From Planctomycetota bacterium (GTDB lineage Bacteria; Planctomycetota; Planctomycetia; Pirellulales; UBA7805), in NCBI GenBank assembly GCA_021413705.1, contig JAIOPX010000077.1:12026-76025 (forward strand): 64,000 nucleotides of DNA, read 5' to 3'. Every line of letters begins with the position of its first letter. Position 1 is the stretch's first letter. The position numbers and the translations under genes were made by a program. The notes below the pieces were generated by a model, which saw nothing but the letters and a program-made list of their open reading frames with translations, was not told the origin of the DNA and searched no databases. This document shows positions 28,283-56,657 of this stretch, piece after piece.

Positions 28283-28377
28283 TTGTGGCTCCTGGCAGGC
28301 AGGTTGACGCTGGGCGCACTTGAGCAGATAATCGGACATCAATATCCATTTTGAAGTCAAGATATATTCGCCCATAA

Positions 28378-28393: not shown

Positions 28394-28419
28394 CGTTTAG
28401 GGCTTGGGGGGACAGTCGT

Positions 28420-31639: not shown

Positions 31640-32115
31640 GCTGGGACAAGTCCTTTTGTCCGATGTGGGGGATCTGCAATACCAGGAGTTAATTCGACCG
31701 TGAACAGGCGGTTTTCCAGGCAAGAATTTCCAAAGCGGCAAAGTCAGCGTAAAAGGTACATGAATGACGCCGAAGGGGCCGTGAGTTTGACGCCTAAGGG
31801 CGACTTGGCACAGCAGCAGGCACCGTCTGAGCGAAATCGCTCATACGGGAGTTGAGGGCCGCTGCCATGGAAGCGGCCGCGGGTGAAAATGCACGGAGGG
31901 ATTGTCGTCGTATGCGGCAACCTACTATACTCTCCGCGGCACATGTGGCAGACGATAATTTTGCCAATGATGCTGCGGTCTTGTCTCGTTACGTGTCCGT
32001 TTTTCTTTCAGGCTGTAGTGGTTGCGGTGGGTCGGACGGAATAGGCTCCAAGGCTGGCTTTCGCAACGCGACCGACCTGATAAACATCCCGTGCAACCGC
32101 CGGGACGGTTTGCAA

Positions 32116-32637
32116 ATGTCGGAATCGCCATCATCTCATCCTGACGATTCGCGCGGGAACTCCCGTCGTCGATTCTTGTTTCTGATTCTCCCCTGGGGGA
32201 TCGTCGCTGCTGCGTACGGCACGTTGGCCGCGTTGGCGGTGCGGTTTCTCTTTCCGAGCCAGCGCCGTCGCCAGGACTGGCAATTCGTGACCACCACGGC
32301 TGAGTTGAAGACGGGACAATCGCTCACGTTTACGTCACCTGACGGGTCGAAGATCGTGTTGGCCCGGCAGCGGGATGGCGACGAACAAGATTCGTTTATT
32401 GCGCTGTCGAGCGTTTGCCCCCACCTGGGTTGTGCAGTGCATTGGGAACCGCACAACAACCGTTTCTTCTGTCCCTGTCATAACGGGGCTTTCGATGCGG
32501 CCGGCGCGCCCACGAGCGGCCCGCCCGCCAAGGCGGGTCAGCCTCTGACTCGTTTTCCCCTGCGCGTGGACCGTGGGCGGTTGTTCATTCGCGTGCCGCT
32601 GGAACGTGTGACGGAGTCTCGTGAGAGGACGGTCTAG
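32116..32637 (+). CDS. Rieske [2Fe-2S] subunit of a cytochrome bc-type complex (Tat signal)
   Basis: SRRRFLF twin-arginine motif. CPHLGCAV...CPCHNGAF Rieske boxes. Start at the ATG at 32116. Confidence 0.85.
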   Translation: MSESPSSHPDDSRGNSRRRFLFLILPWGIVAAAYGTLAALAVRFLFPSQRRRQDWQFVTTTAELKTGQSLTFTSPDGSKIVLARQRDGDEQDSFIALSSVCPHLGCAVHWEPHNNRFFCPCHNGAFDAAGAPTSGPPAKAGQPLTRFPLRVDRGRLFIRVPLERVTESRERTV

Positions 32638-32707: not shown

Positions 32708-33757
32708 ATGGCAGGACTGGCACAATGGTGGGCGCAGCGCGTGCCCATCTCCGGCGAGCAGCTTCGAGAGCTGACAAACGAGCCGGTTCCCAACCACCTG
32801 AAGCGGTGGTGGTTCTGCCTGGGTGGGACGCCGGCCTATCTATTCGTGGTACAGATTGTCACGGGCATCCTACTGGCTTTTTACTATCAGGCCTCTCCGC
32901 AATCGGCCTACGAATCGGTGCGGTACATCACGGAAGAGGCCAGCTACGGTTGGTTTTTTCGCAGCCTGCATCGGTGGTCGGCCACGCTGATGATCGCGGC
33001 GGTGATTCTGCACCAGATGCGGGTCTACTTCACCGGCGCCTACCGCAAACCGCGGGAATTGAATTGGGTGATCGGGATGTGCCTGCTGATGTGCGTGCTG
33101 CTGACCGGCTTCACGGGCTACAGTCTCGTGTTTGAGCAGCTCAGTTACTGGGGGGCCAATGTGGCCGCGAACATCTCGAATTCCGTTCCCCTGTTCGGCA
33201 CCGCCCTGAAGCAATTGCTGCTGGGAGGCGAAGCCTACAATGCGCATACCCTGTCCCGATTCTACGTGCTCCACGCGGCCGTTCTGCCGGGGACGATGAT
33301 TCTCCTGCTTTTCGTGCATGTCACGCTGATTCGGCTGCACGGAGTGAGCGATCTTAAGTTTGCCGATGAAGCACCTGACCAACCTCAACACTTCAATTTC
33401 TTTCCAGACCATCTCCTCACGGAGATCATGGTGGGGCTGGTCCTGATGCTGATCCTCTGCGCGCTGGCCACGCTCGTGCCGGCGCATCTGGGGCAGAGGG
33501 CCGATCCGCTGACGACGCCGGAAGTGATCAAGCCCGAATGGTATTTCTACGTGACGTTTCGGTGGCTCAAGCTGTTTTCACTGAGCTTCGCGGTGCTGAG
33601 TATGGGGCTGATCGTCGCTGCGATGTTCATTTGGCCGTGGATTGACATGCTGTTGCGGCGGATCACGGGTCGTGAAGAGGCGAGCGTTTATATCGGCATT
33701 GTGGCTACTTTGTTGTTGATCGGTTTCACAGTCTGGGAAGCGGTCGTCGCGCATTAA
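32708..33757 (+). CDS. cytochrome b (b6 + subunit IV-like fusion)
   Basis: FYYQASP..AYESV..I......GWFFRSLHRWSA and the PEWYF motif (KPEWYFY), with multiple TM helices. Confidence 0.9.
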   Translation: MAGLAQWWAQRVPISGEQLRELTNEPVPNHLKRWWFCLGGTPAYLFVVQIVTGILLAFYYQASPQSAYESVRYITEEASYGWFFRSLHRWSATLMIAAVILHQMRVYFTGAYRKPRELNWVIGMCLLMCVLLTGFTGYSLVFEQLSYWGANVAANISNSVPLFGTALKQLLLGGEAYNAHTLSRFYVLHAAVLPGTMILLLFVHVTLIRLHGVSDLKFADEAPDQPQHFNFFPDHLLTEIMVGLVLMLILCALATLVPAHLGQRADPLTTPEVIKPEWYFYVTFRWLKLFSLSFAVLSMGLIVAAMFIWPWIDMLLRRITGREEASVYIGIVATLLLIGFTVWEAVVAH

Positions 33758-33805: not shown

Positions 33806-34237
33806 ATGTCGCTTCGCACCAAACAATGGATTATCGCGGTTCTGGGTTCCGCCTTCCTGGTGTCACTGCTTTTTGTCCAGTGGCGTGAGGTCGCGCGCGT
33901 CCGCGAGGAGGCCGGTTTGGTGCCTCCCCATATCGCCGTCCCGGCCAGTTCGGAGTCGTGCGTGAAGTGCCATGGCGAATCCTCTCCAGGCATCATCGAC
34001 CATTGGAAGGGAAGCACGCACGCTGTGAAGGGAGTGGGCTGTGTCGAATGTCATCAGGCAGACGCCAAGGACGCCGACGCCTTTGAGCATTATGGGGCGA
34101 CGATCGCCACCGTCGTGACGCCACGCGATTGTGCCCGTTGCCACGTGAATGAGGCGAACGAATTTGCCCACAGTCACCATGCCCGGGGAGGAAACATTCT
34201 GGCCTCGCTGGACAATACCCTGGCAGAGGTGGTGTAA
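33806..34237 (+). CDS. HAO-family octahaem cytochrome c, N-terminal fragment (haems 1-3)
   Basis: TM anchor followed by CVKCH...W.GSTHA, VGCVECH and CARCH. These align by eye with haems 1-3 of Nitrosomonas HAO (CVECH..W..STHA, VGCIDCH, CGTCH). It ends at TAA 34235..34237. Confidence 0.75.
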   Translation: MSLRTKQWIIAVLGSAFLVSLLFVQWREVARVREEAGLVPPHIAVPASSESCVKCHGESSPGIIDHWKGSTHAVKGVGCVECHQADAKDADAFEHYGATIATVVTPRDCARCHVNEANEFAHSHHARGGNILASLDNTLAEVV

Positions 34238-34246
34238 GGGGCTAAA

Positions 34247-35431
34247 GTGCCGTTCAATCCGCACTCCCCCACGCCAGGCATGACAGTCGATAAGGTCAAC
34301 GGCATGGCCAGCGTAAACACGGGGTGCAAACAATGCCACGGAGGCAAGGTGGGCCTGCAGAAGTCGGACGGCGGTATGCTTACCGTGGACGATTTGAAGC
34401 CTGGCGCGGATGGCAAACCCACGCAGGAAGATCTGCTGGCGTTGGTGGCCCGGGACAAACAGGGGCGTCCACTGCTGCATCCTGATACTTGGCCGAACAC
34501 AGGCATAGGTCGGATGAATCTCGATGGCTCGCTGGGTTCGTGTTCCGCCTGCCATTCGAGACACGATTTTTCACCGCGGCGGGCTCGGCAGCCGGAAAAC
34601 TGCGCCAAGTGCCACCTCGGTCCGGATCATCCGCAGAAAGAGATCTATGAAGAGTCGAAACATGGGGTGGCTTTTCGAGACTTGAAGGACAAGATGAACC
34701 TGGATGCACACCGCTGGGTGCTGGGCAAGGACTACAGTCAGGCGCCCACTTGTGCTACGTGTCACATGTCGGCCAACAAGCTCAACGGCGAGAAAGTTAC
34801 GCATAATCCCGGCCAGCGCATCTCCTGGACCAATCGACCGGAGGTGAGCCTGGTCATGGATACGGACGCCAAGGGCGAGGTCATCAAGGAAACGGATCCC
34901 GCCAAGCGTCGTGACCTGGTGAAAGACACCTGGCAGGACAAGCGGATGCGAATGACCCAGGTCTGCATTCATTGCCACACGCCGGACTATGTCAGTGCGT
35001 TCTACAAGCAATACGACGATTTCGTGATCAACTACAATGAGAAGTTTGCCAAGCCGGGACAGAAGATCATGGCCGCCTTGCGGCAAGACGGCCTGCTGAC
35101 GCCCAAGCAGTTCGATGAAAAAATCGAATGGACATGGTTCTATCTGTGGCACCACGAAGGTCGCCGCGCGCGGCACGGCGCTTCGATGATGGCGCCGGAC
35201 TATGCCCACTGGCACGGCATGTTCGAGGTCGCGGAGAGATTCTATAAGGAATTGATCCCCGAGGCCCGTGAACTGGCCGAAAAGGCCGAACACAACGGCG
35301 GCAAGGCGGAACATACACGGGCCGCAATCCGCGACATACTGGCCCGCCCCGAACATCAATGGTTCGAAGCCGCGAAGGCCGACGGACTGAAGCCGGCAAC
35401 GCCTCCACCGCCGAAGTCTGAAGAAAAGTGA
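34247..35431 (+). CDS. HAO-family octahaem cytochrome c, C-terminal fragment (haems 4-8)
   Basis: Same reading frame as the previous ORF. GCKQCH, CSACHSRHDFS....PENCAKCH..PDH....Y..SKHG, APTCATCHM and CIHCH parallel HAO haems 4-8. The track start is a GTG 3 codons after the TAA. Confidence 0.75.
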   Translation: MPFNPHSPTPGMTVDKVNGMASVNTGCKQCHGGKVGLQKSDGGMLTVDDLKPGADGKPTQEDLLALVARDKQGRPLLHPDTWPNTGIGRMNLDGSLGSCSACHSRHDFSPRRARQPENCAKCHLGPDHPQKEIYEESKHGVAFRDLKDKMNLDAHRWVLGKDYSQAPTCATCHMSANKLNGEKVTHNPGQRISWTNRPEVSLVMDTDAKGEVIKETDPAKRRDLVKDTWQDKRMRMTQVCIHCHTPDYVSAFYKQYDDFVINYNEKFAKPGQKIMAALRQDGLLTPKQFDEKIEWTWFYLWHHEGRRARHGASMMAPDYAHWHGMFEVAERFYKELIPEARELAEKAEHNGGKAEHTRAAIRDILARPEHQWFEAAKADGLKPATPPPPKSEEK

Positions 35432-35473
35432 GCTACCTGGGGGGAGCAACTCGGAGGCAAGGTCCGAGCTTGG

Positions 35474-35953
35474 CTACAACTCAACGGTGGCCAGGACGCG
35501 CACCGACATTCCGGGGGACAGCATACCGACCCGGACAACGGCGGCCATGTATCCAAATCTGCCAACGACCACTTCCTTCAAACGTGGATCGATGGCGTCA
35601 AGTACGTAACAGGGCTTGCGCGGTTGGGTGAGCTGCAAGACCACGTCGCCGATTTTCAGCAGTGTTCCCGGCTCCAGGTGCTGAACGTCGAGTCCCTCCA
35701 CCGTCAGGTTCTCACCCGCGGCGCCCGGCGAGAGCGCGAATCCTTCTCCGATCAATTGTCGCATGATTTCAATATCCCACAGGCAGACCGCTCGATCGGG
35801 TCGGCAGTGCTTGGCGTGCGCGTGCGCATCGCCATCAAGGCCGGTTTCGGTTACCCGGGCCAAGGGTTGAGGTCGCTTGGGGATGCCGCCGGGTGAGCGA
35901 CAGACAGCGATGACCGCGGGAGCATCTTCAAGTCTCTGGTGCATAACCGTCAC
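35474..35953 (-). CDS. MOSC domain protein (YiiM-like)
   Basis: GENLTVEGLD......GT.L.IGDVVLQLTQPRKPCYVLD is the MOSC signature with the conserved Cys. Confidence 0.75.
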   Translation of the reverse strand: MTVMHQRLEDAPAVIAVCRSPGGIPKRPQPLARVTETGLDGDAHAHAKHCRPDRAVCLWDIEIMRQLIGEGFALSPGAAGENLTVEGLDVQHLEPGTLLKIGDVVLQLTQPRKPCYVLDAIDPRLKEVVVGRFGYMAAVVRVGMLSPGMSVRVLATVEL

Positions 35954-36020
35954 TCGAATCCGTTACGTCTGGCGTTGGTTGTGTCGTATCCGTAGCCGAC
36001 TCCCAGGGCGTGCGACATGA

Positions 36021-36824
36021 CTACTGCGGGCCAAGCTGGCAGCCTTCACACTCCTCAGGCCGTTCGACCGAACTGGGGGCAGCGCCCACTCTGGGATGTT
36101 CAATGCCGCACAAGCTCCGTTCGGCCGCTATCAAGGCGCCGAGCAAGACGCCGACTGCTTCATAGTATCCACCAGGATTTTCGCGCCCTAACAAGCGGCC
36201 GAACGCCGGGGCCCACCAGGCCAGATGCTCGTGGAGAAACCGTCGGGCGGCATCGCGACAGATGGCGGCGCGTTGGGCACCGCCCTGATCGCCGCATTCC
36301 GCTGCCCGACGTTCCAGTCCCAGCAGGAATGCCATGAACTCCAATTCCAGGACGATATGGTCGTGCTGCTCACGGCGCTGCGGGGACGGTTCCAGGCCGA
36401 ACGCCTGATAAAACCCGCTCACGTCAGCCAAAGCGTGCGATCTCTGAAAGGTGAACTTGCTGTTGATGTAGTCCGTTTCATGTGGCGGACAGGTGCTGCT
36501 GGCCAAGAGTCCGAAAGTGGATTCAAACAGCTCATTCAGTGCGTGACGCGACGCAGGGAGACGGGCGACGACCGGGGCCGGATTCAGCTCCTCTAAGGGC
36601 TGCTCCCCGAGGGCCAACTCCGCTGACGCGGCAGCCGCTTCGTTGCGCAGTAAGTCGGCCGCGTCGTTCAGGAGCGAATTGTTTGGTAGCGACGTCAGCT
36701 CGAGCCAAGCGCCGGCCCGTGGATCCGCCAGCGCCATGGCGATGAATCGATATAGGATCTGCCGTGCCTGGCTGACGGCAGGATCCCAGGCCACCTCAAC
36801 CCGTGCATTGTCGATCGTGGTCAT
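36021..36824 (-). CDS. TorD/NarJ-family redox-enzyme maturation chaperone (delta subunit)
   Basis: It lies at the distal end of the molybdoenzyme operon. The helical protein carries a YR.IA.AL..P pattern and EFMAFL block typical of NarJ/TorD/EbdD-like chaperones. Confidence 0.6.
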   Translation of the reverse strand: MTTIDNARVEVAWDPAVSQARQILYRFIAMALADPRAGAWLELTSLPNNSLLNDAADLLRNEAAAASAELALGEQPLEELNPAPVVARLPASRHALNELFESTFGLLASSTCPPHETDYINSKFTFQRSHALADVSGFYQAFGLEPSPQRREQHDHIVLELEFMAFLLGLERRAAECGDQGGAQRAAICRDAARRFLHEHLAWWAPAFGRLLGRENPGGYYEAVGVLLGALIAAERSLCGIEHPRVGAAPSSVERPEECEGCQLGPQ

Positions 36825-36845
36825 AGCTGTTGCTTTCGTTGGAAT

Positions 36846-38141
36846 TCAGATCGAGTTGACGTGCTCTGCCGCTGGCCGCTCGAAGGTCGGCTCCTCGACC
36901 GTCACACGGACTACTTCTTCGCCAAGTTTGTTGTAGCCGATGACCGTATCATTGAAGATTTCCTGGGTCTTGCTGCTGCCATCAGGCATGGTCACCTGCA
37001 CCTCAGCGACCTTGGGCCCCTGTTTGATTTCAAAACGAAAAACGATCTGTTGGCTCGCGCGGAACAACTGCAATACGGCGAGCAGTTCACGGTCGGGACA
37101 GCTGTATTGCTCGATGGCGTGTTCCACGCCGGGACCGAACATCTGGACCAGGTAGCCGCGAGGCACCCAGCGGGGCGGGATATAGAAGCCGTTCGGCTCC
37201 GTGCCGAATTGCGGGTAGAGTGGCAGAGCAATCTTCCGCTCTCGGATCAAATAGTACAGCGGGTTCTGGGGATCCTTGGCCCACGTGCCGTCCTCGGCGA
37301 TTTTCACCAGTCCTTGCAGCCGGATCTTGCCGACGCAGGCCGCCATACAGCGCGTCTCGGCGGGAGCACCGGTGGGACTGATGGTGGGATCCTTCCCTTC
37401 GATCCGGGGGTAGCAGCCAACGCATTTTTCGCTGGTCCCGGTCGTCGGCCGATACATCGCCTTCTTATAGGGGCAGCCTTCCACGCACTTGCGATAGCCG
37501 CGGCAACGGCTCTGATCGATCAGCACGATACCGTCCTCGGGGCGCTTGTAGATGGCGTTGCGAGGACAGGATCCCAGGCATCCCGGATAGGTGCAATGGT
37601 TGCAGATTCGGGCCAGATGAAAAAACCAAACTTTATGCTCGGGGAGTTGCGTGGAGGCACCAAATTGTTCCGCACGCTGGAATGTGCCCCCGGTGGCCGT
37701 GTCTTCGTGGATGTTGGGACTCCGCCACTCATCGTCGGTCGGCAGGTAGCCCAGCGCCTGTTGCGGGCCGTCGGGGCCGGGCTTCTTCTGCGCCGCCTCG
37801 AAGATCGTCAGACCCTCGAACGTGCCATAGGGCTTGCGATCCGGTTCGGCTGTAGACTTATTCCAGACCTGCTGGCCGGGGTTGGCCTCTTCAAGCATCG
37901 CGAGCAGCTTCGCGTCCCAATGTTGAGGATAACCGCCGTAGGGTTTGGTTTCGACATTATTCCACCACATTAATTCCTGACCCTTGGAGAACGTCCAAGT
38001 GCTCTTGCATGCCATGGTGCAGGTTTGGCAGCCGATGCAGCGATTCGGATTGAAGACGAAGGCAAACTGCCATTTCGGGTGCCGTTCTTCATGCGGATAA
38101 CCCATTTCCCGCCCGAGCTGCCAGTTATAGACGTTGGCCAT
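36846..38141 (-). CDS. Fe-S beta subunit of a type II DMSO-reductase-family enzyme (NxrB/NarH-like)
   Basis: CIGCQTCTMACK, CNHCTYPGCLGSCP, CRGYRKCVEGCP and CVGCYPRIEG. MWWNNVETKPYGGYP block. 431 aa. Confidence 0.88.
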   Translation of the reverse strand: MANVYNWQLGREMGYPHEERHPKWQFAFVFNPNRCIGCQTCTMACKSTWTFSKGQELMWWNNVETKPYGGYPQHWDAKLLAMLEEANPGQQVWNKSTAEPDRKPYGTFEGLTIFEAAQKKPGPDGPQQALGYLPTDDEWRSPNIHEDTATGGTFQRAEQFGASTQLPEHKVWFFHLARICNHCTYPGCLGSCPRNAIYKRPEDGIVLIDQSRCRGYRKCVEGCPYKKAMYRPTTGTSEKCVGCYPRIEGKDPTISPTGAPAETRCMAACVGKIRLQGLVKIAEDGTWAKDPQNPLYYLIRERKIALPLYPQFGTEPNGFYIPPRWVPRGYLVQMFGPGVEHAIEQYSCPDRELLAVLQLFRASQQIVFRFEIKQGPKVAEVQVTMPDGSSKTQEIFNDTVIGYNKLGEEVVRVTVEEPTFERPAAEHVNSI

Positions 38142-38153
38142 GGTCGCCTTTCC

Positions 38154-38525
38154 TTACGCGTTAGGCGGCAGTGTAATCTGCACCAGCCGCTCGGAGAGCG
38201 GTTGACTGTGCGTGGTGGTCACTCTCACAACTCCGCAGCGCGCCAGGATCGCCCTGATCCGCTCTTTCAGCGGCTCCTCCCCCAAGAGCCTCCACAAACC
38301 GTGGAACCCCGTATAAAAAGGGTCGCGGGACAGTGTCATGAGCGCGTCGAGCCCATTTCCCATCCGGGCATATTCCTCGACCAGCAGGCGCAGCATCAGT
38401 TCCGGGTCACCATCGACCTCGACACCGCTGAGTTCCAGAGGATCCTCCGGCAGCATCTCGCGCGAAACAGGATGCACCTTGGGCCCAATGTTGTTCAGAT
38501 CATCTAGCATGACACTGCTCCCCAT
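38154..38525 (-). CDS. small hypothetical protein between the alpha and beta subunit genes
   Basis: 123-aa ORF, tightly packed (20 nt after the alpha stop, 12 nt before the beta start). No signal peptide or motif recognised. Confidence 0.5.
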   Translation of the reverse strand: MGSSVMLDDLNNIGPKVHPVSREMLPEDPLELSGVEVDGDPELMLRLLVEEYARMGNGLDALMTLSRDPFYTGFHGLWRLLGEEPLKERIRAILARCGVVRVTTTHSQPLSERLVQITLPPNA

Positions 38526-38545
38526 GCGATTTCGTCACGTTCGGG

Positions 38546-41500
38546 TTATTCTTTGATCTTGATCAGCGCGCCGGTCAAATACGCTTCACTCTCGGGCGTC
38601 TTTTCACCTGGACTATAGCCGCTCTGCCCCGGCTTCCAGACGCCCACCCCGTCCAGGCCGCCACTTTCCGCCTTGGTGATTCGGACGAGCGTTTCTTTCG
38701 GCACCGTGTTGATGGCGTGGTTGTCGATATCCGCACCAAAGGTGAACGCCATACTGCCGGTCTTCTTGTGAAACAGGCTATCCGTCTGGTGCATGGGCAT
38801 CATCCAGTTGCGGGTGATGCTTTGATGCGAGCCATAGCGGTAGCTGGCCTGGTAACCGGTTTCCGCAGACAGGGCACGGCCGTCGGCGCGGGTTTCATGG
38901 GCGCGCACGGTTCGTTCCGTGGCAATCCAGCCCGTGTGCTTCATGATCGTGAACGTGTAGGGGAGCCCCGGATTGAGCTTCACGCGGACCATGCAGCGGA
39001 AGGCTTTATGGCGCGGACCTTTGTCGTCTTTCCAGCCGATGTAGGGGCGATCCAGTTCATTGGCGTCGACGTAGACATAGTCCCCTTCATGCAGTCCCAG
39101 GTCGGCGGCCGCCTGGGGGTTCATCTGAATCTGTCGATCCGCCACGCCTGGCGCCCGCTTGTCGGTGCGGTGCGGATCGCCAAAGTTATCGCTCCACAGC
39201 CAGTGCCAATCGACGGTGGACCAGGATGAGTGGGTCGAATGGCGGCTCTTGGGTGTGCTGCAGAAGAATTGATATCCCTGCTTCCAAAGCGGGTTGACGG
39301 TTTGCTTGACCTCCGCCCAGGGCAGCTTGACGTTGCGCACTTGGCGCAAGTCAGGATCAGCCGTGTCGGCCGGAATACCAAAGTCAGCGGGTCGCACAAA
39401 TGGGCTGGTAGAAACGATGACGTTCGGCAGATAGGGAGTCGCCTCGACTCCTTCGCGGTGGACGATCAGGTTTTCGCCATACTCGATAGCCTCGGGCAGA
39501 TCGCAATAGCTGGCCAGCCGCCCGCAATCCGTGTAGAACGGGATGGAATCGTGTACTTGCTCCCAGAACGGTACGCGCGGGTAGGTGCGAAACAGCATCA
39601 GTGCCGCGCCGGGCTCGCCTCCATATTCTCCGGCAATCATCTTGTCGACCTGATAAGGACCGTCCTTGCCGCGCGTCGTCGTGGAATTGTCAAAGACACG
39701 TTGCAGATAGACTTTGGCCTTTTTCTCCGTAACAAATTTGAAATAATCGGCGAACCGGCGATCGCCGGTCTTCTTCGCCAGGGCACGGGCGACGCCGGCG
39801 AACACTTCAGCGTCGTCCACCGAATCGTGAACCGGCTTGATGCCTCCCTTCCAGACCTGGATGAAGGGATTCGAGCAGGAGCCGCCGCATTCGTAGTCCT
39901 CCTGCTCGACCCAGGAATTGACCGGCAGCACCACGTCGGCGTATTCGGCGCTGCCGGTCCATTCGATCTGTTGGTCGACGATCATGTCAACTTTAGGCAG
40001 CACGTTGACAATGATATTGTAGATCCACTTAGACTGGTTCAAGAAGTTGGCGTTGTTGTACCAGATCACCTTGGTGGGGGTTGGCAGGTGCGTCTTGCCA
40101 GTGAAGTTGCGACGGCCGCCTTTGGGCAAATCGACCGTCGTCGTCCTCTCTCCACAGGCCCAGTAAGACGGATCCTCGCCATCGCTCAGGTGTCGCAGAT
40201 GTTCGTGCGTGATTCGCGTTGCTTCGTCGAGGACGGGATGGAAAGGATCTTCATGCGTGTAACTGCCGACTCCCGGCCCGCTCCAAGGGGAGGCCTGCAT
40301 CAGCGCTCCCTTGTAGTTGCCGGCCCAGGTGAAGCAGCCGGCACCATGCCGGCCGATGTTTCCGGTGAGCATCACGGGCAGGTAAGCGGCTCGATTGTGG
40401 AGGGTGGCATGGAAATAGTGGTTGACACCTTCACCGATGTGGATCGCTACGGGATGGCCTGCCTCGGTCGTTTTCCAGATGTCCTCGGCCAAGCGACGGA
40501 CCAGATGTGCGGGCGCGCCGGAGATCTCCTCGACCGTTTTTTCGTCGTAGTCCCGCAAATGCCGCTTATACATTTCCAGGATCGGCATCACTTCAACCTG
40601 GCGACCGTCGGCGAGTTGGACCTGGTAGGTTCCTTCCAAGGCGGCCGCCACATTCAAATTCTTGCCTACCTCATCACGGCTGATGAAGACCACTCGCTTG
40701 CCAGCGGTGTCCCACACACAAAAGTCGCCGATGCGCCGCCGCTGTGAATCCGTCAGCCCCTGGATTTTGTAGGAGGGACCGGCCGAGATGTCCTTGGGGC
40801 GATAGCCGGCCATCACGTCCTCGGGCCGCAGCCTGCGAAGCGTATCGGTTCGCACGAGCAGCGGGAAATCCGTGAACTGGCGGCAGAAATCTGGTTTGTA
40901 CCAGTGGTTGTCGAGCATGATTTTCGTCACGCCCAAGAGTACCGAGGTATCGCTTAGCCCCGGCCGTACGCCGATCCAGTAATCACTCTTGGTGGCCGGG
41001 CAGTTGTATTCCGGGGCGATGTCCACCAGTCGGCCGCCGCGCTCCATAACTTCATTGAGCCAATGCGACTCGGGCATCTTGTTTTCGATCAGGTTCTTGC
41101 CGATTTGGATCACCAGCTTGGAAAACCGCAGGTCATTGAAATCCATGTCGGCGGTCTGCAAGCCATGCACAAACGGCTGCCCGGGCGCCTGGTCGCCGCG
41201 CCAGGTGTACTCGTTCCAGTCGCGCGCGCCGTGCGCTTTTTCTGCCGGCACGCCGCGGACATGATGATCCAAGAGTCCCAGCAGGTTGGCGAAACGATAG
41301 ATGCCGAACTTCCCCACGATGCCGTGGATTGGCAAGTTGGAGCCCATCTTGATCACGCGTGTGCCGGCCCCTTCCACCTTGTCGATCATCACCTGCTCGT
41401 AGCCGTCGCGCTTCAGTCGCTCGACACCATCAGCGCCGCTGTACGTGCGGGACACCGCTTCCAGACCGGCCGCCACATAGTCGGATATCTCCCCCCAACT

Positions 41501-42016
41501 GAGCCGCACATAGCCATCGTTGCCCCGGTCATCGAATTTGTACTTGCTCCGGAGTTCAGGGTTCTCCGAAAGCGAGGGGAACCCGGCGTCGGCCCAATCC
41601 TTCCATCCTTTGCGCAATACCGGGCCCTTCAGCCGGTACGGGCCATAGACCCGCCGTTGCATGGTAAATCCCTTGGGGCAGCCACGAGGATTCCAGGCCT
41701 TGGTGGCCTTGTTGCCATACAGATCGCCGTAGCGGTCATGATCGTAATTTTGCTCGCTGCGAATCATCACGCCGTTGCGGACATACGCTCGCAGCCGGCA
41801 CATGTGCGTATCGTTCGGAGCGCAGACCCAAGTAAAGGTCCGGTCATAGCGGTACTGATCAAGATAAATCTTCTCCCAATCGCGGCTGGGATAGGCGCCC
41901 AGTGGGCTTTCACCGCTGACAGGAGCGAACGCCCAGCCCTGCGCTCCCTGAGCCAGCAACACGCTACCGCCGGTAGCCGCGCAAGATTTCAGGAAGTGAC
42001 GTCTTGAGATGGTCAT
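38546..42016 (-). CDS. molybdopterin alpha subunit, Tat-exported (NxrA / periplasmic NarG-like)
   Basis: MTISRRHFLKSCAATGG..AQGAQGWA is a Tat signal (start 42016). VCAPNDTHMCRLRAYVRNGVM is the N-terminal Fe-S region. About 1156 aa, larger than Pcr/Ser/Ebd alpha subunits. Confidence 0.88.
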   Translation of the reverse strand: MTISRRHFLKSCAATGGSVLLAQGAQGWAFAPVSGESPLGAYPSRDWEKIYLDQYRYDRTFTWVCAPNDTHMCRLRAYVRNGVMIRSEQNYDHDRYGDLYGNKATKAWNPRGCPKGFTMQRRVYGPYRLKGPVLRKGWKDWADAGFPSLSENPELRSKYKFDDRGNDGYVRLSWGEISDYVAAGLEAVSRTYSGADGVERLKRDGYEQVMIDKVEGAGTRVIKMGSNLPIHGIVGKFGIYRFANLLGLLDHHVRGVPAEKAHGARDWNEYTWRGDQAPGQPFVHGLQTADMDFNDLRFSKLVIQIGKNLIENKMPESHWLNEVMERGGRLVDIAPEYNCPATKSDYWIGVRPGLSDTSVLLGVTKIMLDNHWYKPDFCRQFTDFPLLVRTDTLRRLRPEDVMAGYRPKDISAGPSYKIQGLTDSQRRRIGDFCVWDTAGKRVVFISRDEVGKNLNVAAALEGTYQVQLADGRQVEVMPILEMYKRHLRDYDEKTVEEISGAPAHLVRRLAEDIWKTTEAGHPVAIHIGEGVNHYFHATLHNRAAYLPVMLTGNIGRHGAGCFTWAGNYKGALMQASPWSGPGVGSYTHEDPFHPVLDEATRITHEHLRHLSDGEDPSYWACGERTTTVDLPKGGRRNFTGKTHLPTPTKVIWYNNANFLNQSKWIYNIIVNVLPKVDMIVDQQIEWTGSAEYADVVLPVNSWVEQEDYECGGSCSNPFIQVWKGGIKPVHDSVDDAEVFAGVARALAKKTGDRRFADYFKFVTEKKAKVYLQRVFDNSTTTRGKDGPYQVDKMIAGEYGGEPGAALMLFRTYPRVPFWEQVHDSIPFYTDCGRLASYCDLPEAIEYGENLIVHREGVEATPYLPNVIVSTSPFVRPADFGIPADTADPDLRQVRNVKLPWAEVKQTVNPLWKQGYQFFCSTPKSRHSTHSSWSTVDWHWLWSDNFGDPHRTDKRAPGVADRQIQMNPQAAADLGLHEGDYVYVDANELDRPYIGWKDDKGPRHKAFRCMVRVKLNPGLPYTFTIMKHTGWIATERTVRAHETRADGRALSAETGYQASYRYGSHQSITRNWMMPMHQTDSLFHKKTGSMAFTFGADIDNHAINTVPKETLVRITKAESGGLDGVGVWKPGQSGYSPGEKTPESEAYLTGALIKIKE

Positions 42017-42064
42017 GTCAGTTGTTCCTTGAACCATCCTGCCTGACGGCCGTATTGCGGCTCC

Positions 42065-43792
42065 TCAGTGGGGTGGCTTCTCCAAAAGCAAATCCTGCCA
42101 GATGCTGATCAACTTCTGTCCGTTGCGGTCGCGATGATCCCCATCCCAGACTGCCAGCGCAATCGAGGCCCGCTCACCCGGCACCAACGACACGCCGGAT
42201 GCTCCCTCAACGACGAGCGGGCGCGTCATCACGACGGTCCAACGACCCTCCCGCCATTGCCCGCGGGCGGTCACCAGGCGACTCTTCGGCAACCGGAACG
42301 CCACGCTTCCCGGCCCGCTGGCCGTGAGCGACGAACTGCCGGATGCACCGGCGGCCGGCACAACAGGGTTGCCGCTGGCCTTGGCCGGCAGCGAAATATC
42401 GGGTTGTTCCTTCCGCTGCGTGCCAGGCCGCTGATATTCGGCGGTGGAAACGGTTTTTTCGCTCAACGGATATTGATCCACCACGGTGCGAGGATAGATC
42501 TGCTCGACATCGGGCGGGCCGGTCGGCGGTTCCGCCTGCCAAAACCACACGTCAACCGGCGCGTCGGTCGAGCCCATCCCCAGAAATGGCTCGACTGTGC
42601 CACGGTACAACTCGACTGCGATCGCATCGCGGAACGCCTGGGTGCGGGCCGCGTCGCTGTTGGATGTCGCATCCTGCCAGCGGAGCCGGATGGCAATGTC
42701 GCGTCCGTCGTGGACCGCTTGCACAGTCAGCCCGGGATCAGCGTCATCGCGCCACCACAGCGGTGTCATTCGTAGCCGCACCGCAGGACTCATCTCCCAT
42801 TGCGACGAGGCCTGATCTCCGGGCAGTTTAGCAACATACTTGGCCACAATTTGCTCACGCTTCAATAGCGACGCTTCGCGCTGTGCATCGGTGGAGAGCG
42901 ACCGCAGAAAATTCACGAGATCGGTTATCTCTTCCGGTTTAAGGTTGGCACTGGCGGGCATGGGAGTACCGGGCATCCCTAGAGCGATCCGACGATAGAA
43001 GGAGGTTGGGTCCGGGCTCCCCTTGTAAATGCCACGGGTCAAATCGCGGGGGCGTGTCGGCAATCCCTCCGCGTCAACCATCTTCTGCTGCCCATCTCCG
43101 CGCCCTTCGTTGCCATGGCACGAATGACAACTCTGCTTGACATACAGCTCCTTGCCGCGAGCGATACTCTTGGCATCCGGGGGGCCGATGGCCGGCACGG
43201 CGAATACCGCGGCGGGCAGGGTGCGGTTCTCGACGAATTGTTTGACTTCTTGCTCGTCAATTTGCTCTTCCCCCTGCTCCTTCAGGGTACGGATGATTTC
43301 TTCACGCGCGCCCTCGCGACGAAATCGCAACACTTCATCCACCAGCAGCGATCGATCCCGCGGGCTCAGATGGGCCCAGGAAGGCATAGCCGATCCGGGC
43401 ATTCCTCGCACCAACATCGCCTCGATATCCTCCCGAGATGGCACGCCGTTGACCGTGCTGACAAGCCGGTAAGGACTTGCACGGAGGTTGCGTGGCTTGG
43501 GGTAGATAAATCTGGCGGCCAGACCCTGCCCGTCTCCTTGATCGCCGTGGCACGCCGCACAGTGCCGGGTGTAGAGTTCGGTAGCGGTGAGAGGTTTGGT
43601 GGCCACAGCTACAGGGACCGCAGTTTCTCCCGAAGTTCGCTGTCCGCCGACCCCAGCATCACCCCTCGTCGTGTCCTGACGTGGGGTCGGTGGGGGAGCG
43701 GATGGTTGACAGCCGACAGCCATCCACGCCAGGAATGCGCAGATCATGAACTCAATTCTGTCGCGTTTGAGTCCTTCCGCCATCATTCCCAT
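42065..43792 (-). CDS. gamma subunit: lipoprotein with two cytochrome c domains fused to an EB_dh/DOMON-like haem-b domain
   Basis: The lipobox-like WMAVGC is followed by CAACHGDQGDG and CHSCHGNEGRG. The C-terminal ...IALAVWDGDHRDRNGQKLISIW is typical of ethylbenzene-dehydrogenase gamma-like domains. Confidence 0.75.
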   Translation of the reverse strand: MGMMAEGLKRDRIEFMICAFLAWMAVGCQPSAPPPTPRQDTTRGDAGVGGQRTSGETAVPVAVATKPLTATELYTRHCAACHGDQGDGQGLAARFIYPKPRNLRASPYRLVSTVNGVPSREDIEAMLVRGMPGSAMPSWAHLSPRDRSLLVDEVLRFRREGAREEIIRTLKEQGEEQIDEQEVKQFVENRTLPAAVFAVPAIGPPDAKSIARGKELYVKQSCHSCHGNEGRGDGQQKMVDAEGLPTRPRDLTRGIYKGSPDPTSFYRRIALGMPGTPMPASANLKPEEITDLVNFLRSLSTDAQREASLLKREQIVAKYVAKLPGDQASSQWEMSPAVRLRMTPLWWRDDADPGLTVQAVHDGRDIAIRLRWQDATSNSDAARTQAFRDAIAVELYRGTVEPFLGMGSTDAPVDVWFWQAEPPTGPPDVEQIYPRTVVDQYPLSEKTVSTAEYQRPGTQRKEQPDISLPAKASGNPVVPAAGASGSSSLTASGPGSVAFRLPKSRLVTARGQWREGRWTVVMTRPLVVEGASGVSLVPGERASIALAVWDGDHRDRNGQKLISIWQDLLLEKPPH

Positions 43793-44080
43793 GACCCGCT
43801 CCGTCTAGTTGGCGTCAGTCCTTTCGACTGGCAATCGTTCTGTCATTGTCACCGCTTCGTGAGGAGTCAGCAGATGTCATGCCGAAGGCAGACTGCGTAT
43901 GCCGCTCCATGCAAGTGGGTGGATTTGCTTAACCGTCCTCAGTTCAAGGGTGCATAAGGTGTATTCGTTCGGCACGCACAGTGCGGCCTCGCACACTCTC
44001 TGGCCTGGTGAGCGAAGTTAGCAATTCCTTCGCAGTCGCCGATTACATTCGTAGCCAAAATCTGCAGGTAACCGGCAGGA

Positions 44081-44530
44081 TTACTCCGAATCGCCAAGAT
44101 CTCGCTCATAAGCTTCCTGAACTAACCCGTTCTCCATACGTTCGTGTTCCAGAAACTCTCCTAGGAAGTAGTAAAAGAGCTGCTCCAGTGCCTGCCAGCA
44201 GCGAGGCGATCCGCGGTGAACGCGACTGAGGGCACGGAATTGGTCCAGGGTGGTGCGAAACTCGGCATGTTGTTGCCGCAAAATGTCGATTTTTTGCTGG
44301 AGGCGCGGAGCCTCAGCGAGCACTTCAGAAAAATAACCTCCCTCCTCCTCTTCGTGGCCAAAGTGGGACTCGATCAGATTCGCCAAGCCTGTCATACGAA
44401 TCGTCAATTCGTGGCGATCCGCGTTTCTGGCCGCCAACAGCCTCTGAAACTGCTGTAACAGGCGGCGGAGTTCGTCATGCTCGTCGGCGATCTCATGGTC
44501 GGTGCCGCGATTGAGGTCTATTTTTGTCAT
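44081..44530 (-). CDS. hemerythrin-like (HHE cation-binding) domain protein
   Basis: Start is MTKIDL at 44530. DEHDEL..., H..HFGHEEEEGGYF and EFLEHERMEN are di-iron His/Glu motifs. Confidence 0.7.
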   Translation of the reverse strand: MTKIDLNRGTDHEIADEHDELRRLLQQFQRLLAARNADRHELTIRMTGLANLIESHFGHEEEEGGYFSEVLAEAPRLQQKIDILRQQHAEFRTTLDQFRALSRVHRGSPRCWQALEQLFYYFLGEFLEHERMENGLVQEAYERDLGDSE

Positions 44531-44555
44531 GACAACGTCTCCAGGAGGAATCGCC

Positions 44556-45035
44556 CTACCATGCCGCACAGTCCAAAACGCCCGGCGATGGCAGCGGCCC
44601 AGACAAACAGGGAAATCGGCAGCCCAGTTTACGAGGCTGCGCGGTCAGCAGCTCGTCGATCGTGGTTGACTGGAAAGACTCTTCGACCAGCGCAACCGCG
44701 TTGTCGAGTCGCCGGTGCAGCGGGCAAAGCTGCTCCGCGTGTGCTTCCAGATCCAGCGGACACGTCCGGATTCGCTGCAAAGGATCCACTGTATTGACGA
44801 CGTCGAGTACGGTGAGTTCGGTTGCGGCCTTGACGAGCATAAAGCCCCCGTGCAGGCCGCGCTGCGATCGGACCATACCGGATCGGCACAGACTTTGCAT
44901 GACTTTGGAAAGGTACCCGCAGGGGACACGCGTCGCACTGGCAATTTCGGCTGTCGTGGCCGGTTCGTCGTGTCGCGCAAGGAAAACGATCGCTCGCAGG
45001 GCGTATTCGGCGGTTTGGGAAATCATGGTTGGCAT
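44556..45035 (-). CDS. Rrf2-family transcriptional regulator (second NsrR-like copy)
   Basis: MISQTAEYALRAIVFLA...SQRGLHGGFMLV and CPLDLEAHAEQLCPLHRR (three Cys). An alternative start is at 45026. Confidence 0.85.
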   Translation of the reverse strand: MPTMISQTAEYALRAIVFLARHDEPATTAEIASATRVPCGYLSKVMQSLCRSGMVRSQRGLHGGFMLVKAATELTVLDVVNTVDPLQRIRTCPLDLEAHAEQLCPLHRRLDNAVALVEESFQSTTIDELLTAQPRKLGCRFPCLSGPLPSPGVLDCAAW

Positions 45036-45063
45036 TTCGTAAAATCGACCTTAATTGGATATC

Positions 45064-45079
45064 TGGATCTTGACATCCA
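45064..45079 (+). promoter_or_regulatory. Rrf2/NsrR-type operator candidate overlapping the -35 box of the ytfE promoter
   Basis: TGGATCTTGACATCCA. TTGACA (45070..45075), a 16-nt spacer and TAGAAT (45092..45097), upstream of the ATG at 45196. Confidence 0.5.
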
Positions 45080-45195
45080 TAATACACCCGTTAGAATGTC
45101 CTTGTCAAGCGGGAACTTCCCCCGTGGCAGGTTGACGCGCGGATGGGAGTCGGACGGCTTACTTAAAAACGGACATTCCCGAGAGGAGAATTTCC

Positions 45196-45972
45196 ATGAG
45201 CAATACGGCACTGCTCCCTACTCCGCTGCCCCAGCAGCGGGTGGGAGATCTGGTTCGCGAGCGTCCGCTACTCGGAAGAGTCTTTGACGGCCTGGGCATC
45301 GACTACTGTTGCGGAGGCAACCGCACTCTGGCCGGCGCCTGTGCAGCGGCTGACGTGCCACTCGTGACAGCAATTGGGCTACTTAGCCAGTCCGATGGCG
45401 AATCATTGACTGCGTCTGAGGCAGACTGGTCTACGGCGTATCTCTCTGCGTTGATCGACCATGTCGTCGACAAGCACCATCGCTATTTGCGGGAGGAATT
45501 GCCGCGGCTAGCGGCCTTGCTTCCTCGCGTGATCAAAGCTCATGGCCAACAGCATCCCGAACTTCGCGAATTGGAGCAGGTTTTCGGAAAACTGGTCGAC
45601 GAACTGACGACCCATCTGCTCAAGGAGGAGCAGGTGTTGTTTCCCGCAGTGAAGCAATTGGAGGAGCGTCGACCTCATGAATCGACAAGGCAAGTCAGCC
45701 CCAGTCTCAGTATCCACCTGCCGATCGGCAGGATGGAAGACGAACATCGCTTCGTGGGGGGAGCCTTGCGGCGAATCCGCTGGTTGACTGGCGACTATCG
45801 GCCACCCCAGGACGCTTGCAGCACCTATCGGGTCTTGCTCGCTGGTTTGCACGACTTGGAGGCGGACCTGCATTTGCACATCCACAAGGAGAACAACATC
45901 CTGTTTCCTCGAGCAAAGCAGCTTTGGATAGAAATCGATACCGGCAGCATTCCAATCGAGGCGGATCGATGA
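45196..45972 (+). CDS. ytfE: iron-sulfur cluster repair di-iron protein (RIC, YtfE/ScdA family)
   Basis: N-terminal ScdA_N motif GIDYCCGGNRTL followed by hemerythrin-like H/E motifs (HHRYLREELP, HLLKEEQVLFP, HIHKENNILFP). Confidence 0.85.
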   Translation: MSNTALLPTPLPQQRVGDLVRERPLLGRVFDGLGIDYCCGGNRTLAGACAAADVPLVTAIGLLSQSDGESLTASEADWSTAYLSALIDHVVDKHHRYLREELPRLAALLPRVIKAHGQQHPELRELEQVFGKLVDELTTHLLKEEQVLFPAVKQLEERRPHESTRQVSPSLSIHLPIGRMEDEHRFVGGALRRIRWLTGDYRPPQDACSTYRVLLAGLHDLEADLHLHIHKENNILFPRAKQLWIEIDTGSIPIEADR

Positions 45973-46031
45973 TGCAGGGTTGGCCCGACTATCGGAAACT
46001 GCCCCCGTCCCGCACTTAGAGGAGATCAGCA

Positions 46032-46802
46032 ATGTCGCTCCGAATTTGGCTCTGTGGTGTAATTGTGATGACCTTTTCGTTGATCGGAACCTGCGGCGCA
46101 GCCCAGGATCAGGCGATCATCAAGGGGCGATTTGTTTATGACGGTACGCCGCCCGTTCCGGAGAAACTTGCCCCAGATAAAGATAGGGAAGTTTGCGGCA
46201 AACACACGTTGGTGCGCGAACAAGTGACCGTGGGCAAAGATGGTGGGCTGGCCAATGTGGCCGTGTGGCTTTCCAGTAAAGGAATTTCTCCCGCCGCAGA
46301 CACGCCTGTGCCAGGAGCAGCGGTGATTGACAACAAGGACTGTCGTTTCGAGCCGCACGTCATCGTTCTCCGCACTGGCCAGCCGCTCGAACTCAAGAAC
46401 TCCGACCCTGTTGGCCACAATACGATGGCCAGTCCCCAAAGCAACCCAACCTTCAACGTCCTCATCCCTGCCAACGGCTCGCAGACGGTCAAGAGTTTGA
46501 CGCGATCCGAACGCATGCCATTCGAGGTCAAATGCAGTATCCATCCGTGGATGAATGCTTGGGTAGTGCTGCAGGACCATCCCTTTACGGCCGTGAGTGG
46601 CCCCGACGGCAGCTTTGAAATCAAGGGGCTCCCGGCAGGCAAGAAGCTGGAATTCCAGGTGTGGCAGGAAAAGGCTCGCTATTTGAAAAATGTCGACGTG
46701 GGAAGCACTAAGACTTCTGCCTTTGGCAGGTTTTCATTGACTCTCAAGCCGGGAGAGAACGATCTGGGTGCGATTAAGGTTTCGGCCAGCGCCTTCAAGT
46801 AG
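46032..46802 (+). CDS. secreted cupredoxin-like (type 1 copper-site-like) protein with a C-terminal beta-sandwich domain
   Basis: Signal peptide. DPVGHN...CSIHPWM supplies a His...Cys-x2-His-x2-Met ligand pattern. The C-terminal SGPDGSFEIKGLPAGK is carboxypeptidase-regulatory-like. Confidence 0.5.
   Translation: MSLRIWLCGVIVMTFSLIGTCGAAQDQAIIKGRFVYDGTPPVPEKLAPDKDREVCGKHTLVREQVTVGKDGGLANVAVWLSSKGISPAADTPVPGAAVIDNKDCRFEPHVIVLRTGQPLELKNSDPVGHNTMASPQSNPTFNVLIPANGSQTVKSLTRSERMPFEVKCSIHPWMNAWVVLQDHPFTAVSGPDGSFEIKGLPAGKKLEFQVWQEKARYLKNVDVGSTKTSAFGRFSLTLKPGENDLGAIKVSASAFK

Positions 46803-53531: not shown

Positions 53532-56657
<3,126 letters not shown>

Follow-up and report, generated by a model that had tools for sequence, protein, structure and literature searches.

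The molybdoenzyme operon and its probable extent

Within a 64,000-nucleotide stretch of a planctomycete genome (positions 12,026 to 76,025 of contig JAIOPX010000077.1, assembly GCA_021413705.1; hereafter the window), the minus strand between positions 36021 and 43792 carries five tightly packed open reading frames (ORFs) in the order gamma, alpha, small ORF, beta and chaperone. An initial annotation had read them as the operon of a periplasmic molybdoenzyme resembling nitrite oxidoreductase (NXR) or nitrate reductase, and all five were found where it had placed them (Table 1). On sequence grounds, the enzyme is a periplasm-facing member of the type II dimethyl sulfoxide (DMSO) reductase family and belongs to the NXR branch, of the kind found in Nitrospira, Nitrospina and anammox bacteria. 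Its gamma subunit is predicted to be a membrane-tethered three-haem protein, in which a dihaem module resembling Kustc0457 of Kuenenia is joined to an NxrC-type haem-b domain. The locus derives from a freshwater metagenome and has a depth of 13-15x.

When the likely start codons are used, the gaps within the five-gene set amount to 48, 35, 12 and 21 nucleotides (nt), and a gene for a stand-alone MOSC-domain protein lies 67 nt past the chaperone gene, giving a spacing of 12-67 nt from gamma to MOSC. The start of alpha was placed at the second ATG (42016), which is preceded by an AAGGAA box; the resulting 1156 amino acids (aa) agree with the length estimated earlier and with the 1155-1156 aa of homologues. 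Homologous loci were labelled L001 and so on, and neighbourhood counts were made within 10 kb over 85 loci (about 86). The core gene order is kept in 32-35 of 35-36 close loci, and P0361, the 50% cluster representative of the whole clade, also shows the layout alpha, small ORF, beta, chaperone, MOSC. The MOSC gene follows the chaperone gene in 12 of the 85 loci and likewise in L086 (6320-6868; 59%-identical representative P0361). It is probably the last gene of the transcription unit, and its product may handle the molybdenum cofactor. At the opposite end, the unit probably starts with the genes of an Rrf2-family regulator and a hemerythrin-domain protein, and it would thus reach past the coordinates given above on both sides. 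An Rfam scan of positions 35000-46500 found no riboswitch or other RNA, the single selenocysteine insertion sequence (SECIS) match being sub-threshold.

Subunits and family membership

The alpha subunit (PF00384) bears a twin-arginine translocation (Tat) signal, SRRHFLK, which scores 19.3 with TIGR01409 against a cut-off of 16.7, in keeping with the initial annotation. It aligns with NxrA of Kuenenia stuttgartiensis (7b04_B) over its full length (1-1154) at 1499 bits and a computed identity of 55%, whereas the next solved structures score ten-fold lower: 176 bits for a PcrA-type protein, 131 for EbdA and 115 for NarG, the last of these confined to two short stretches. The ligands of the FS0 iron-sulfur (Fe-S) cluster are C, D, C and C at the Kuenenia positions 67, 71, 75 and 115 (three cysteines and one aspartate), and the equivalents of the substrate-coordinating N70 and of the molybdenum ligand D275 are present. 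All six signature residues (C67, N70, D71, C75, C115 and D275, following the FS0, Asn and Asp residues listed for the Kuenenia enzyme by Chicano et al., PMC8387239) are kept in the window and in nearly all relatives.

A search with alpha returned 2126 homologues at E ≤ 1e-20, the best 120 of which are 79-96% identical; with the homologues of gamma counted below, this shows that the ORFs did not arise by chance. In a neighbour-joining tree of 64 sequences with 100 bootstraps, whose named references were Kuenenia NxrA (rebuilt from PDB alignments) and a Nitrospiraceae metagenome-assembled genome (MAG), the window alpha falls into a tight clade of 29 sequences (bootstrap 100, 75-85% identity). 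Nearly all of these are from Planctomycetota, with members in Pirellulales, Planctomycetales, Gemmataceae and Isosphaeraceae, and one belongs to a MAG labelled Verrucomicrobiota. The sister group (bootstrap 100) holds Latescibacterota, Binatia, Ignavibacteria and Acidobacteriota sequences, and both groups lie within a 51-sequence clade that includes the two references (bootstrap 100). Sequences from SAR202, Gaiellaceae and haloarchaea fall outside this NxrA clade. The view that alpha is of the NxrA kind rather than of the Pcr, Ser or Ebd kind is borne out by both the scores and the tree, in which it clusters neither with a non-nitrogen clade nor with the haloarchaeal pNar type.

The NCBIfam models of the Ebd/Ser/Clr/Ddh subgroup (TIGR03477-03479 and TIGR03482) remain under their cut-offs throughout, with 302 against 985 for alpha, 242 against 481 for beta, 112 against 170 for gamma and 70 against 152 for the chaperone. 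The hallmarks of a type II DMSO-reductase heterotrimer are all present, namely a molybdenum-bis(pyranopterin guanine dinucleotide) (Mo-bisPGD) alpha subunit with its Asp, the FS0 motif, a four-cluster beta subunit and a NarJ/TorD chaperone. So are those of a periplasmic NXR: the grouping with NxrA, an FS0 site of three Cys and one Asp accompanied by the Asn, a Tat-bearing alpha, a signal-less beta and a Met/Lys-ligated haem b. Hence, the similarity to NxrA, the conserved residues and the tree, together with the low scores of the Ebd/Ser/Clr/Ddh models, assign the enzyme to the NXR branch.

Two other placements were considered and rejected. A cytoplasm-facing NarGHI or Nitrobacter-type NXR is at odds with the Tat signal, with the low NarG score and with an operon in which no NarI-like gene occurs. 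The haloarchaeal-type pNar, represented by Halorussus, is 33% identical, has Cys at the position of the FS0 Asp and lies outside the NxrA clade; what it has in common with the window is limited to the linkage with Rieske/cytochrome b genes. Limisphaera and an Ignavibacteria isolate ('distant NarGHI homologues') were also considered as cultured nitrate reducers, and their sequences could not be linked to the family. As a separate observation, the alpha subunits of L042, L046 and L047 (Phycisphaerae), L063 (Dehalococcoidia) and L045 (Actinomycetes) are 61-63% identical to Kuenenia NxrA and hence closer to it than the window clade is (56%), and they are no further from it than nitrite oxidisers, for which about 60% has been published. 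These five sequences are relevant to the origin of the anammox NXR.

The beta subunit (Fer4_11) aligns with Kuenenia NxrB (7b04_A) at 567 bits over residues 2-431; all four cysteine groups and the MWWNNVETKPYGG block, which had been pointed out before, are in register, and there is no signal peptide. The chaperone reaches 70.5 bits with PF02613 (cut-off 22.2), and its gene is present in 35 of 35 close loci. The small ORF of 118 aa has 141 homologues with 20 invariant residues, including a VEEYAR block, and is found in 32 of 35 close loci, with more distant relatives and beside P0361. It has no Pfam or NCBIfam family and no PDB match by fold or profile, and its AlphaFold2 (AF2) model, with a predicted local distance difference test (pLDDT) value of 79, shows a confident four-helix core. 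From its position alone, we take it to be a cytoplasmic assembly factor.

The gamma subunit has 1048 homologues, and the best 120 all share its architecture, in which two cytochrome c domains (PF00034 and PF13442; CAACH at aa 78-82 and CHSCH at aa 222-226) precede an EB_dh domain (PF09459, 84 bits). The domains are thus as first described, whereas the fusion, then called unusual, is standard in the planctomycete lineage and unusual only beside the characterised Kuenenia enzyme. Indeed, a comparison across relatives showed that the gene immediately preceding alpha encodes a full-length fused gamma in 34 of 36 close loci, 7 of 11 intermediate loci and 6 of 14 more distant loci. Relatives from Acidimicrobiia, Dehalococcoidia and Nitrospiraceae have an unfused gamma that is encoded elsewhere.

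The dihaem module matches chain B of 6h5l over both domains in sequence (E 1.6e-31, 31% identity) and in fold (Foldseek E 3.5e-16, TM-score 0.82 on the target, root-mean-square deviation 3.0 Å). This entry is the Kustc0457/Kustc0458 complex and its chain B is Kustc0457 (entry title; PMC8388095), and the module shares with the latter the two class I cytochrome c domains with a CxxCH motif and a distal Met in each. The CxxCH cysteines and histidines of both domains, as well as Met131 and Met273, are invariant in 52 gamma homologues. The same holds for Met406 and Lys560 of the haem-b domain, which align with M155 and K305 of Kuenenia NxrC (7b04_C; E 1.7e-19, 73 bits; Foldseek E 2.6e-16). Weaker fold matches of the dihaem module were obtained with the QcrC dihaem subunits of actinobacterial bcc-aa3 supercomplexes (7qhm_C, E 1e-4), and the c domains are similar to the CcoP haem domain found in cbb3 oxidases. 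The earlier suggestion that the fusion wires the enzyme to the level of cytochrome c is therefore well supported in its anatomy by these ligands and fold matches, the electron path itself being a likely one.

Gamma had also been predicted to be a lipoprotein. The lipobox-like MAVGC fits this prediction, as judged by a heuristic of our own rather than by a dedicated predictor. Applied to 120 homologues, the same heuristic assigned a lipobox-like N-terminus to 55 and no more than a hydrophobic anchor to 49.

Regulatory region and neighbouring genes

The order Rrf2, hemerythrin, gamma seen at the head of the unit recurs in L078 and L079, while in L083 a hemerythrin gene lies downstream of MOSC. 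Two Rrf2 regulators are present in the window, as the initial annotation had stated, and its naming of them as NsrR was not established. The regulator of the operon scores 52 bits with the NsrR equivalog against a cut-off of 182. Its conserved candidate ligands, from 20 homologues, are E10, C92, H100, C105 and H108. Both regulators of the window reach only the superfamily model and belong to a subfamily with a conserved CPL-x4-5-H-x3-4-LCPLH motif and an N-terminal Glu, which differs from the three-cysteine motif of NsrR and IscR (CX5CX5C in NsrR).

The divergent neighbour of this regulator gene encodes a RIC/YtfE-type repair protein, a homologue of which lies near the operon in 15 of the 85 loci. 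In six loci (L003, L004, L008, L026, L039 and L084) the RIC gene sits inside the operon, between alpha and the small ORF, a placement suggesting that RIC helps to build or repair the enzyme's five Fe-S clusters.

The intergenic region between the Rrf2 and RIC genes measures 160 nt and contains two overlapping, near-consensus promoter-like sites, one per strand, with 11 of 12 matches each. A palindrome, TGGATATC-N8-GACATCCA, lies over the -10 region of the operon-side site and over the -35 of the RIC-side one. This block is nearly invariant in L079, L078, L073 and L076 while its flanks diverge, and the exact core is also found in L012. It occurs once in the window (0 mismatches), and the window search found no further copy ahead of gamma, qNOR or the second Rrf2 gene. 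An inverted-repeat scan of the regulatory region with default seeds returned nothing, the palindrome having emerged only from the cross-locus alignment. Its position would suit a repressor-type operator, and the unit is probably transcribed from an Rrf2-controlled promoter common to the operon and the divergent Fe-S repair gene.

On the far side of MOSC lie genes for a Rieske protein, a cytochrome b and a hydroxylamine oxidoreductase (HAO)-like octahaem protein. In the window they converge with the operon; in L001 and L082 all three share its strand, following it in L001 and immediately preceding it in L082. The HAO-like gene is interrupted by an in-frame TAA in the window, and its homologue in L001 reads through the stop position (..LAETVEGSREPFNPH..). 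The contigs of the source run are fragmented over the TAA, with two strain variants, and neither confirm nor refute the stop. Over positions 34255-34555, run X1 yields two contig variants (~14x and ~30x) that differ at 15 positions, which indicates a second related strain in the source sample. The best solved match of the HAO-like protein is an Ignicoccus-type octahaem cytochrome, with Kustc0458 second. The three genes are a candidate quinol-side partner of the enzyme.

A secreted cupredoxin-like protein is encoded beyond the RIC gene. Its match to amicyanin (2gb2_A) is weak (E 0.014), although it spans the whole fold with all four type 1 copper ligands in register; the Pfam cupredoxin models remain under threshold. 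Across 15 homologues, the conservation of these ligands is at least 90%, and 14 of the 85 loci have the gene beside the operon. Among nitrite oxidisers and anammox bacteria, too, the NXR clusters contain conserved genes of the cupredoxin type (PMC3578206). We regard the protein as a candidate electron carrier of the enzyme.

The bc-HAO cluster and the qNOR gene named in the initial annotation were both confirmed as neighbours, and the nitrogen-cycle context recurs among homologous loci. An Rrf2 homologue of any identity was found in 29 of the 85 loci and qNOR in 8. Among 30 close loci with enough upstream sequence, and at an identity of at least 35%, the counts were 9 for Rrf2, 10 for RIC and 7 for qNOR. 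Globin or protoglobin sensors also lie near the operon in some loci.

Elsewhere in the window, the region behind a tRNA-Val (4795-4869) encodes a tyrosine integrase (4993-6264), an AAA_25 protein and a family A DNA polymerase, along with many ORFs with no assigned family, up to about position 25000. The region 4795-25000 is probably an integrated mobile element; a repeat of the 3' end of the tRNA-Val was sought in the window as an attR site, and none was found. A 777-aa protein made almost wholly of ankyrin repeats (50338-52671) lies beside a type I restriction-modification system, with an R gene (53532-56657), a DUF4268 protein, an S gene (58816-60201) and a further ORF (60191-61756).

Table 1. 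Coordinates of the operon, its regulatory region and the neighbouring genes in the window.
Feature	Position	Strand	Remarks
Gamma ORF	42065-43792	minus	575 aa
Gamma aa 1-28, signal/anchor helix	43709-43792	minus	ends in lipobox-like MAVGC (Cys28); AF2 helix aa 3-27
Gamma aa 29-69, flexible linker	43586-43708	minus	Pro/Thr/Ala-rich by composition; pLDDT <50 at aa 28-64; sequence not conserved
Gamma aa 70-300, dihaem cytochrome c module	42893-43585	minus	CAACH with Met131, CHSCH with Met273
Gamma aa 314-575, NxrC/EbdC-type haem-b domain	42065-42853	minus	Met406, Lys560; stop codon 42065-42067
Alpha, NxrA-type	38546-42037	minus	ORF of 1163 aa; 1156 aa from likely start 42016; Tat signal, FS0, Mo-bisPGD site
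Small ORF	38154-38525	minus	123 aa; 118 aa from likely start 38510
Beta, NxrB-type	36846-38141	minus	431 aa; four Fe-S clusters
Delta, NarJ/TorD-type assembly chaperone	36021-36824	minus	267 aa
MOSC-domain protein	35474-35953	minus	PF03473
Terminator-like hairpin directly past MOSC	35430-35452	minus	consensus match; such matches no commoner in the region than in shuffles
Hemerythrin-domain protein	44081-44569	minus	PF01814; 14-nt overlap with Rrf2 gene
Rrf2-family regulator, first gene of probable unit	44556-45035	minus	PF02082, 95 bits
Palindrome	45056-45079		overlaps both promoter-like sites
RIC-side promoter-like site	45070-45097	plus	promoter scan; -35 inside conserved block
Operon-side promoter-like site	45108-45079	minus	promoter scan; TTGACA-18-TATTAT
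RIC/YtfE-type di-iron Fe-S cluster repair protein, divergent	45196-45972	plus	TIGR03652, 232 against cut-off 204.7; ScdA_N and Hemerythrin domains
Secreted cupredoxin-like protein	46032-46802	plus	256 aa; His, then Cys-x2-His-x2-Met; C-terminal CarboxypepD_reg-like beta-sandwich domain
HAO-like octahaem gene	33806-35431	plus	3 + 5 CxxCH; in-frame TAA at 34235-34237
Cytochrome b	32708-33757	plus	
Rieske protein	31852-32637	plus	
Second Rrf2 regulator	28381-28863	opposite to protoglobin and qNOR genes	
Protoglobin	27686-28387	opposite to second Rrf2 gene	ends of protoglobin and second Rrf2 genes overlap by 7 nt
qNOR	25381-27642	opposite to second Rrf2 gene	8 kb from operon

Related systems and direction of the reaction

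The closest characterised system is NXR-ABC of Kuenenia stuttgartiensis (7B04, PMC8387239), to which all three subunits are homologous over their full length, with a Tat-bearing alpha and a Met/Lys haem b in both. Kuenenia NxrC has one haem b, no c haems and is soluble in the anammoxosome, whereas the window gamma has a tether, a linker and the dihaem c module; furthermore, the gene order differs, gamma being first in the window operon. The N-terminal module of gamma matches nearly the whole chain of Kustc0457 (6H5L, PMC8042395), a dihaem protein that partners an HAO-like enzyme producing nitric oxide (NO) from nitrite, and the adjacent octahaem gene of the window is Kustc0458-like. Kustc0457 occurs as a free subunit, whereas the window module is covalently joined to NxrC; it may pair with an octahaem protein, to judge from the gene neighbourhood in three loci. 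Alternative NxrC proteins of Nitrospina gracilis, with one to three c-type haem sites and a DMSO-reductase-type haem-b domain, have been proposed to hand electrons from nitrite to the respiratory chain (Lucker et al. 2013, PMC3578206). Compared here by their description, these proteins are encoded away from nxrAB as additional copies beside a canonical NxrC, whereas the fused gamma of the window is the sole gamma and the first gene of the operon. In QcrC, too, two cytochrome c domains are fixed in place and stand in for a soluble carrier, and the protein resembles the gamma module in structure; it belongs to complex III rather than to a molybdoenzyme, and its sequence identity to the module is 14-15%.

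The lineage itself has been encountered before. A 2023 study of an Oslofjord tunnel (FEMS Microbiol Lett, PMC10732223) reported 19 Planctomycetota MAGs with poorly annotated molybdopterin oxidoreductases that scored more than 1000 bits to Kuenenia NxrA. The Oslofjord (OFTM) contigs L011, L018, L020, L030 and L053 carry the same operon with an alpha 79-83% identical to that of the window, and are of the same lineage. In the light of that report, the window operon, which is complete and well preserved, is a new member of a known, uncharacterised lineage. The relevant passages of the study cover the alpha phylogeny and gene inventories; its main text does not name NxrC, these passages do not discuss the gamma fusion, the small ORF or the operator, and a figure legend lists a nearby 'FeTF' iron-dependent regulator. 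A 2025 study of the origins of anammox enzymes found only two distant planctomycete homologues, because isolate genomes were sampled. New here are the probable extent of the transcription unit, the putative operator shared with the RIC gene, the 118-aa ORF and the recurrent blue-copper and Rieske/cytochrome b/HAO-like neighbours.

From what is known of the family, alpha with its Mo-bisPGD and FS0 and beta with its four Fe-S clusters would be assembled in the cytoplasm with the assistance of the NarJ-type chaperone and, probably, of the 118-aa ORF, the MOSC protein and RIC. The folded alpha-beta pair would then be exported by means of the Tat signal of alpha, and gamma would be exported separately and tethered to the membrane by its N-terminus and the linker of about 40 residues. 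The likely electron route connects Mo, FS0 to FS4, the Met/Lys haem b and the two His/Met c haems, presumably in this order. With this haem chain in gamma, the enzyme would plug directly into the level of periplasmic cytochrome c, cupredoxin and the bc complex.

In which direction the electrons flow had been judged not to be readable from the sequence, and we agree: nothing in the active site separates nitrate reduction from nitrite oxidation, and Kuenenia NXR runs both ways. We favour nitrate respiration fed by a bc-type complex over nitrite oxidation, and would give this reading an even chance of being correct. Electrons would pass from quinol through the Rieske/cytochrome b complex and the octahaem protein to the c haems of gamma and on to nitrate, yielding nitrite. 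The organism would respire in this way in low oxygen, with qNOR, RIC and hemerythrin coping with N-oxide stress. This reading is based on the linkage of the operon to quinol-oxidising Rieske/cytochrome b/octahaem genes in three independent arrangements (the window, L001 and L082) and on the recurrence of denitrification-type neighbours, namely qNOR, RIC, hemerythrin and protoglobin. In addition, a heterotroph that passed electrons from nitrite to oxygen would need no dedicated bc complex.

There are precedents for such an arrangement. The outward-facing Nar enzymes of Methanoperedens and haloarchaea, which likewise have a Tat-bearing alpha and an EbdC/Orf7-like haem-b subunit and are devoid of NarI, are proposed to receive their electrons from a Rieske/cytochrome b complex with multihaem cytochromes, and the reaction is antimycin-sensitive (PMC4683180). 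The haloarchaeal enzyme differs in its divergent alpha with Cys for the FS0 Asp, as described above, and in having no fused c haems. In Thermogutta, a nitrate-respiring planctomycete, bc1 genes adjoin the nar genes (PMC5673643).

Several points weigh against nitrate respiration. To our knowledge, the physiologically characterised members of the nearest clade all oxidise nitrite in vivo, although their enzymes are reversible. Only a few of the 85 loci show the link to Rieske/cytochrome b genes, and the octahaem gene of the window carries its TAA. The tree behind the family assignment is distance-based and was built without isolate Nitrospira or Nitrospina sequences, and the only RNA run from the source sample, a small one, had no reads or contigs on the locus. 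Nitrite oxidation would be served just as well by a high-potential Met/Lys haem b, His/Met c haems and a blue-copper partner. Finally, the Oslofjord study, in the passages concerned, favoured nitrite oxidation for its related MAGs, and according to these 6 of the 19 also have a Nar-type reductase and many have Nap (PMC10732223), which makes a third nitrate reductase less needed.

The first alternative is accordingly a nitrite oxidase in an otherwise heterotrophic planctomycete, with electrons leaving through the c haems of gamma, and perhaps the cupredoxin, to a terminal oxidase. It would serve as an extra energy source or in the detoxification of nitrite and NO, and would be switched on by Rrf2 together with RIC. 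Membership of the NxrA clade and identical active-site and FS0 residues agree with this, as do the high-potential ligand sets on all three gamma haems and the resemblance of the c domains to CcoP. The cupredoxin gene recurs beside the operon, much as nitrite oxidisers and anammox bacteria have one in their NXR clusters; joint control with an Fe-S repair gene would suit a stress regulon; and the related MAGs are described in the same passages as having oxygen reductases and often a separate Nar or Nap (PMC10732223). However, no oxidase gene occurs in the window or in the annotated flanks, and the link to a quinol-oxidising Rieske/cytochrome b complex would be left unexplained. These lineages are, moreover, not known as nitrite oxidisers. 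We consider this alternative possible, yet the less probable of the two directions.

An anammox-like front end is unlikely. Here, the Kustc0457-like module of gamma would dock on the Kustc0458-like octahaem protein, such that nitrite oxidation by the NXR would drive the reduction of nitrite to NO. This would be a dismutation of nitrite, with qNOR clearing the NO and the octahaem reductase sitting on the Rieske/cytochrome b complex. The idea draws on the best match of the gamma module and the second-best match of the HAO-like protein being the two chains of 6h5l, a complex that reduces nitrite to NO (PMC8042395), and no separate dihaem partner gene accompanies the HAO-like gene in the window, L001 or L082. 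Electrons derived from NXR have been proposed to feed nitrite reduction in anammox bacteria (PMC8387239), and the window has a qNOR gene 8 kb off. Nevertheless, the fusion is universal in the lineage, yet no more than 3 of about 86 loci have an HAO-like gene next to the operon. In the window this gene is split by a stop codon, and its product matches the Ignicoccus-type octahaem protein better than Kustc0458. Furthermore, the coupled reaction conserves no obvious energy and is slightly uphill at standard conditions by our calculation from published potentials. If it did operate, Planctomycetota outside the anammox group would share the nitrite-handling front end of that metabolism. NXR, the HAO-like reductase and its dihaem partner, and the bc complex bearing HAO would then have come to anammox bacteria from within their phylum instead of from nitrite oxidisers.

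A non-nitrogen substrate (chlorate, perchlorate, selenate or an organic compound, as in Pcr, Clr, Ser, Ebd and Ddh) is highly improbable, for although a Tat-exported alpha, a four-cluster beta and a soluble haem-b gamma are common to these enzymes and the NCBIfam type II DMSO-reductase models give partial matches, those models stay far under their cut-offs, the PcrA-type and EbdA structures score ten-fold under NxrA, the substrate-coordinating Asn is kept (Ile in EbdA, PMC8387239) and the neighbours are N-oxide genes.

NXR-type enzymes serve as markers of nitrite oxidation in metagenomes, and the lineage described here is abundant, with thousands of sequences from freshwater, sludge, groundwater, soil and marine samples, in heterotrophic Planctomycetota and several other phyla. 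Should these enzymes reduce nitrate, as we favour, nitrite oxidation is overestimated wherever such markers are used; should they oxidise nitrite, nitrification has a large hidden group of contributors. In the window, a regulator, a putative operator, the enzyme and candidates for its carriers and quinol-side partner form one compact, testable unit. What the locus adds is anatomical detail: the three-haem tethered gamma, the probable Rrf2-controlled unit shared with Fe-S repair, the uncharacterised conserved ORF and the recurrent partners. The likeness of its parts to anammox components bears on the origin of the anammox pathway.

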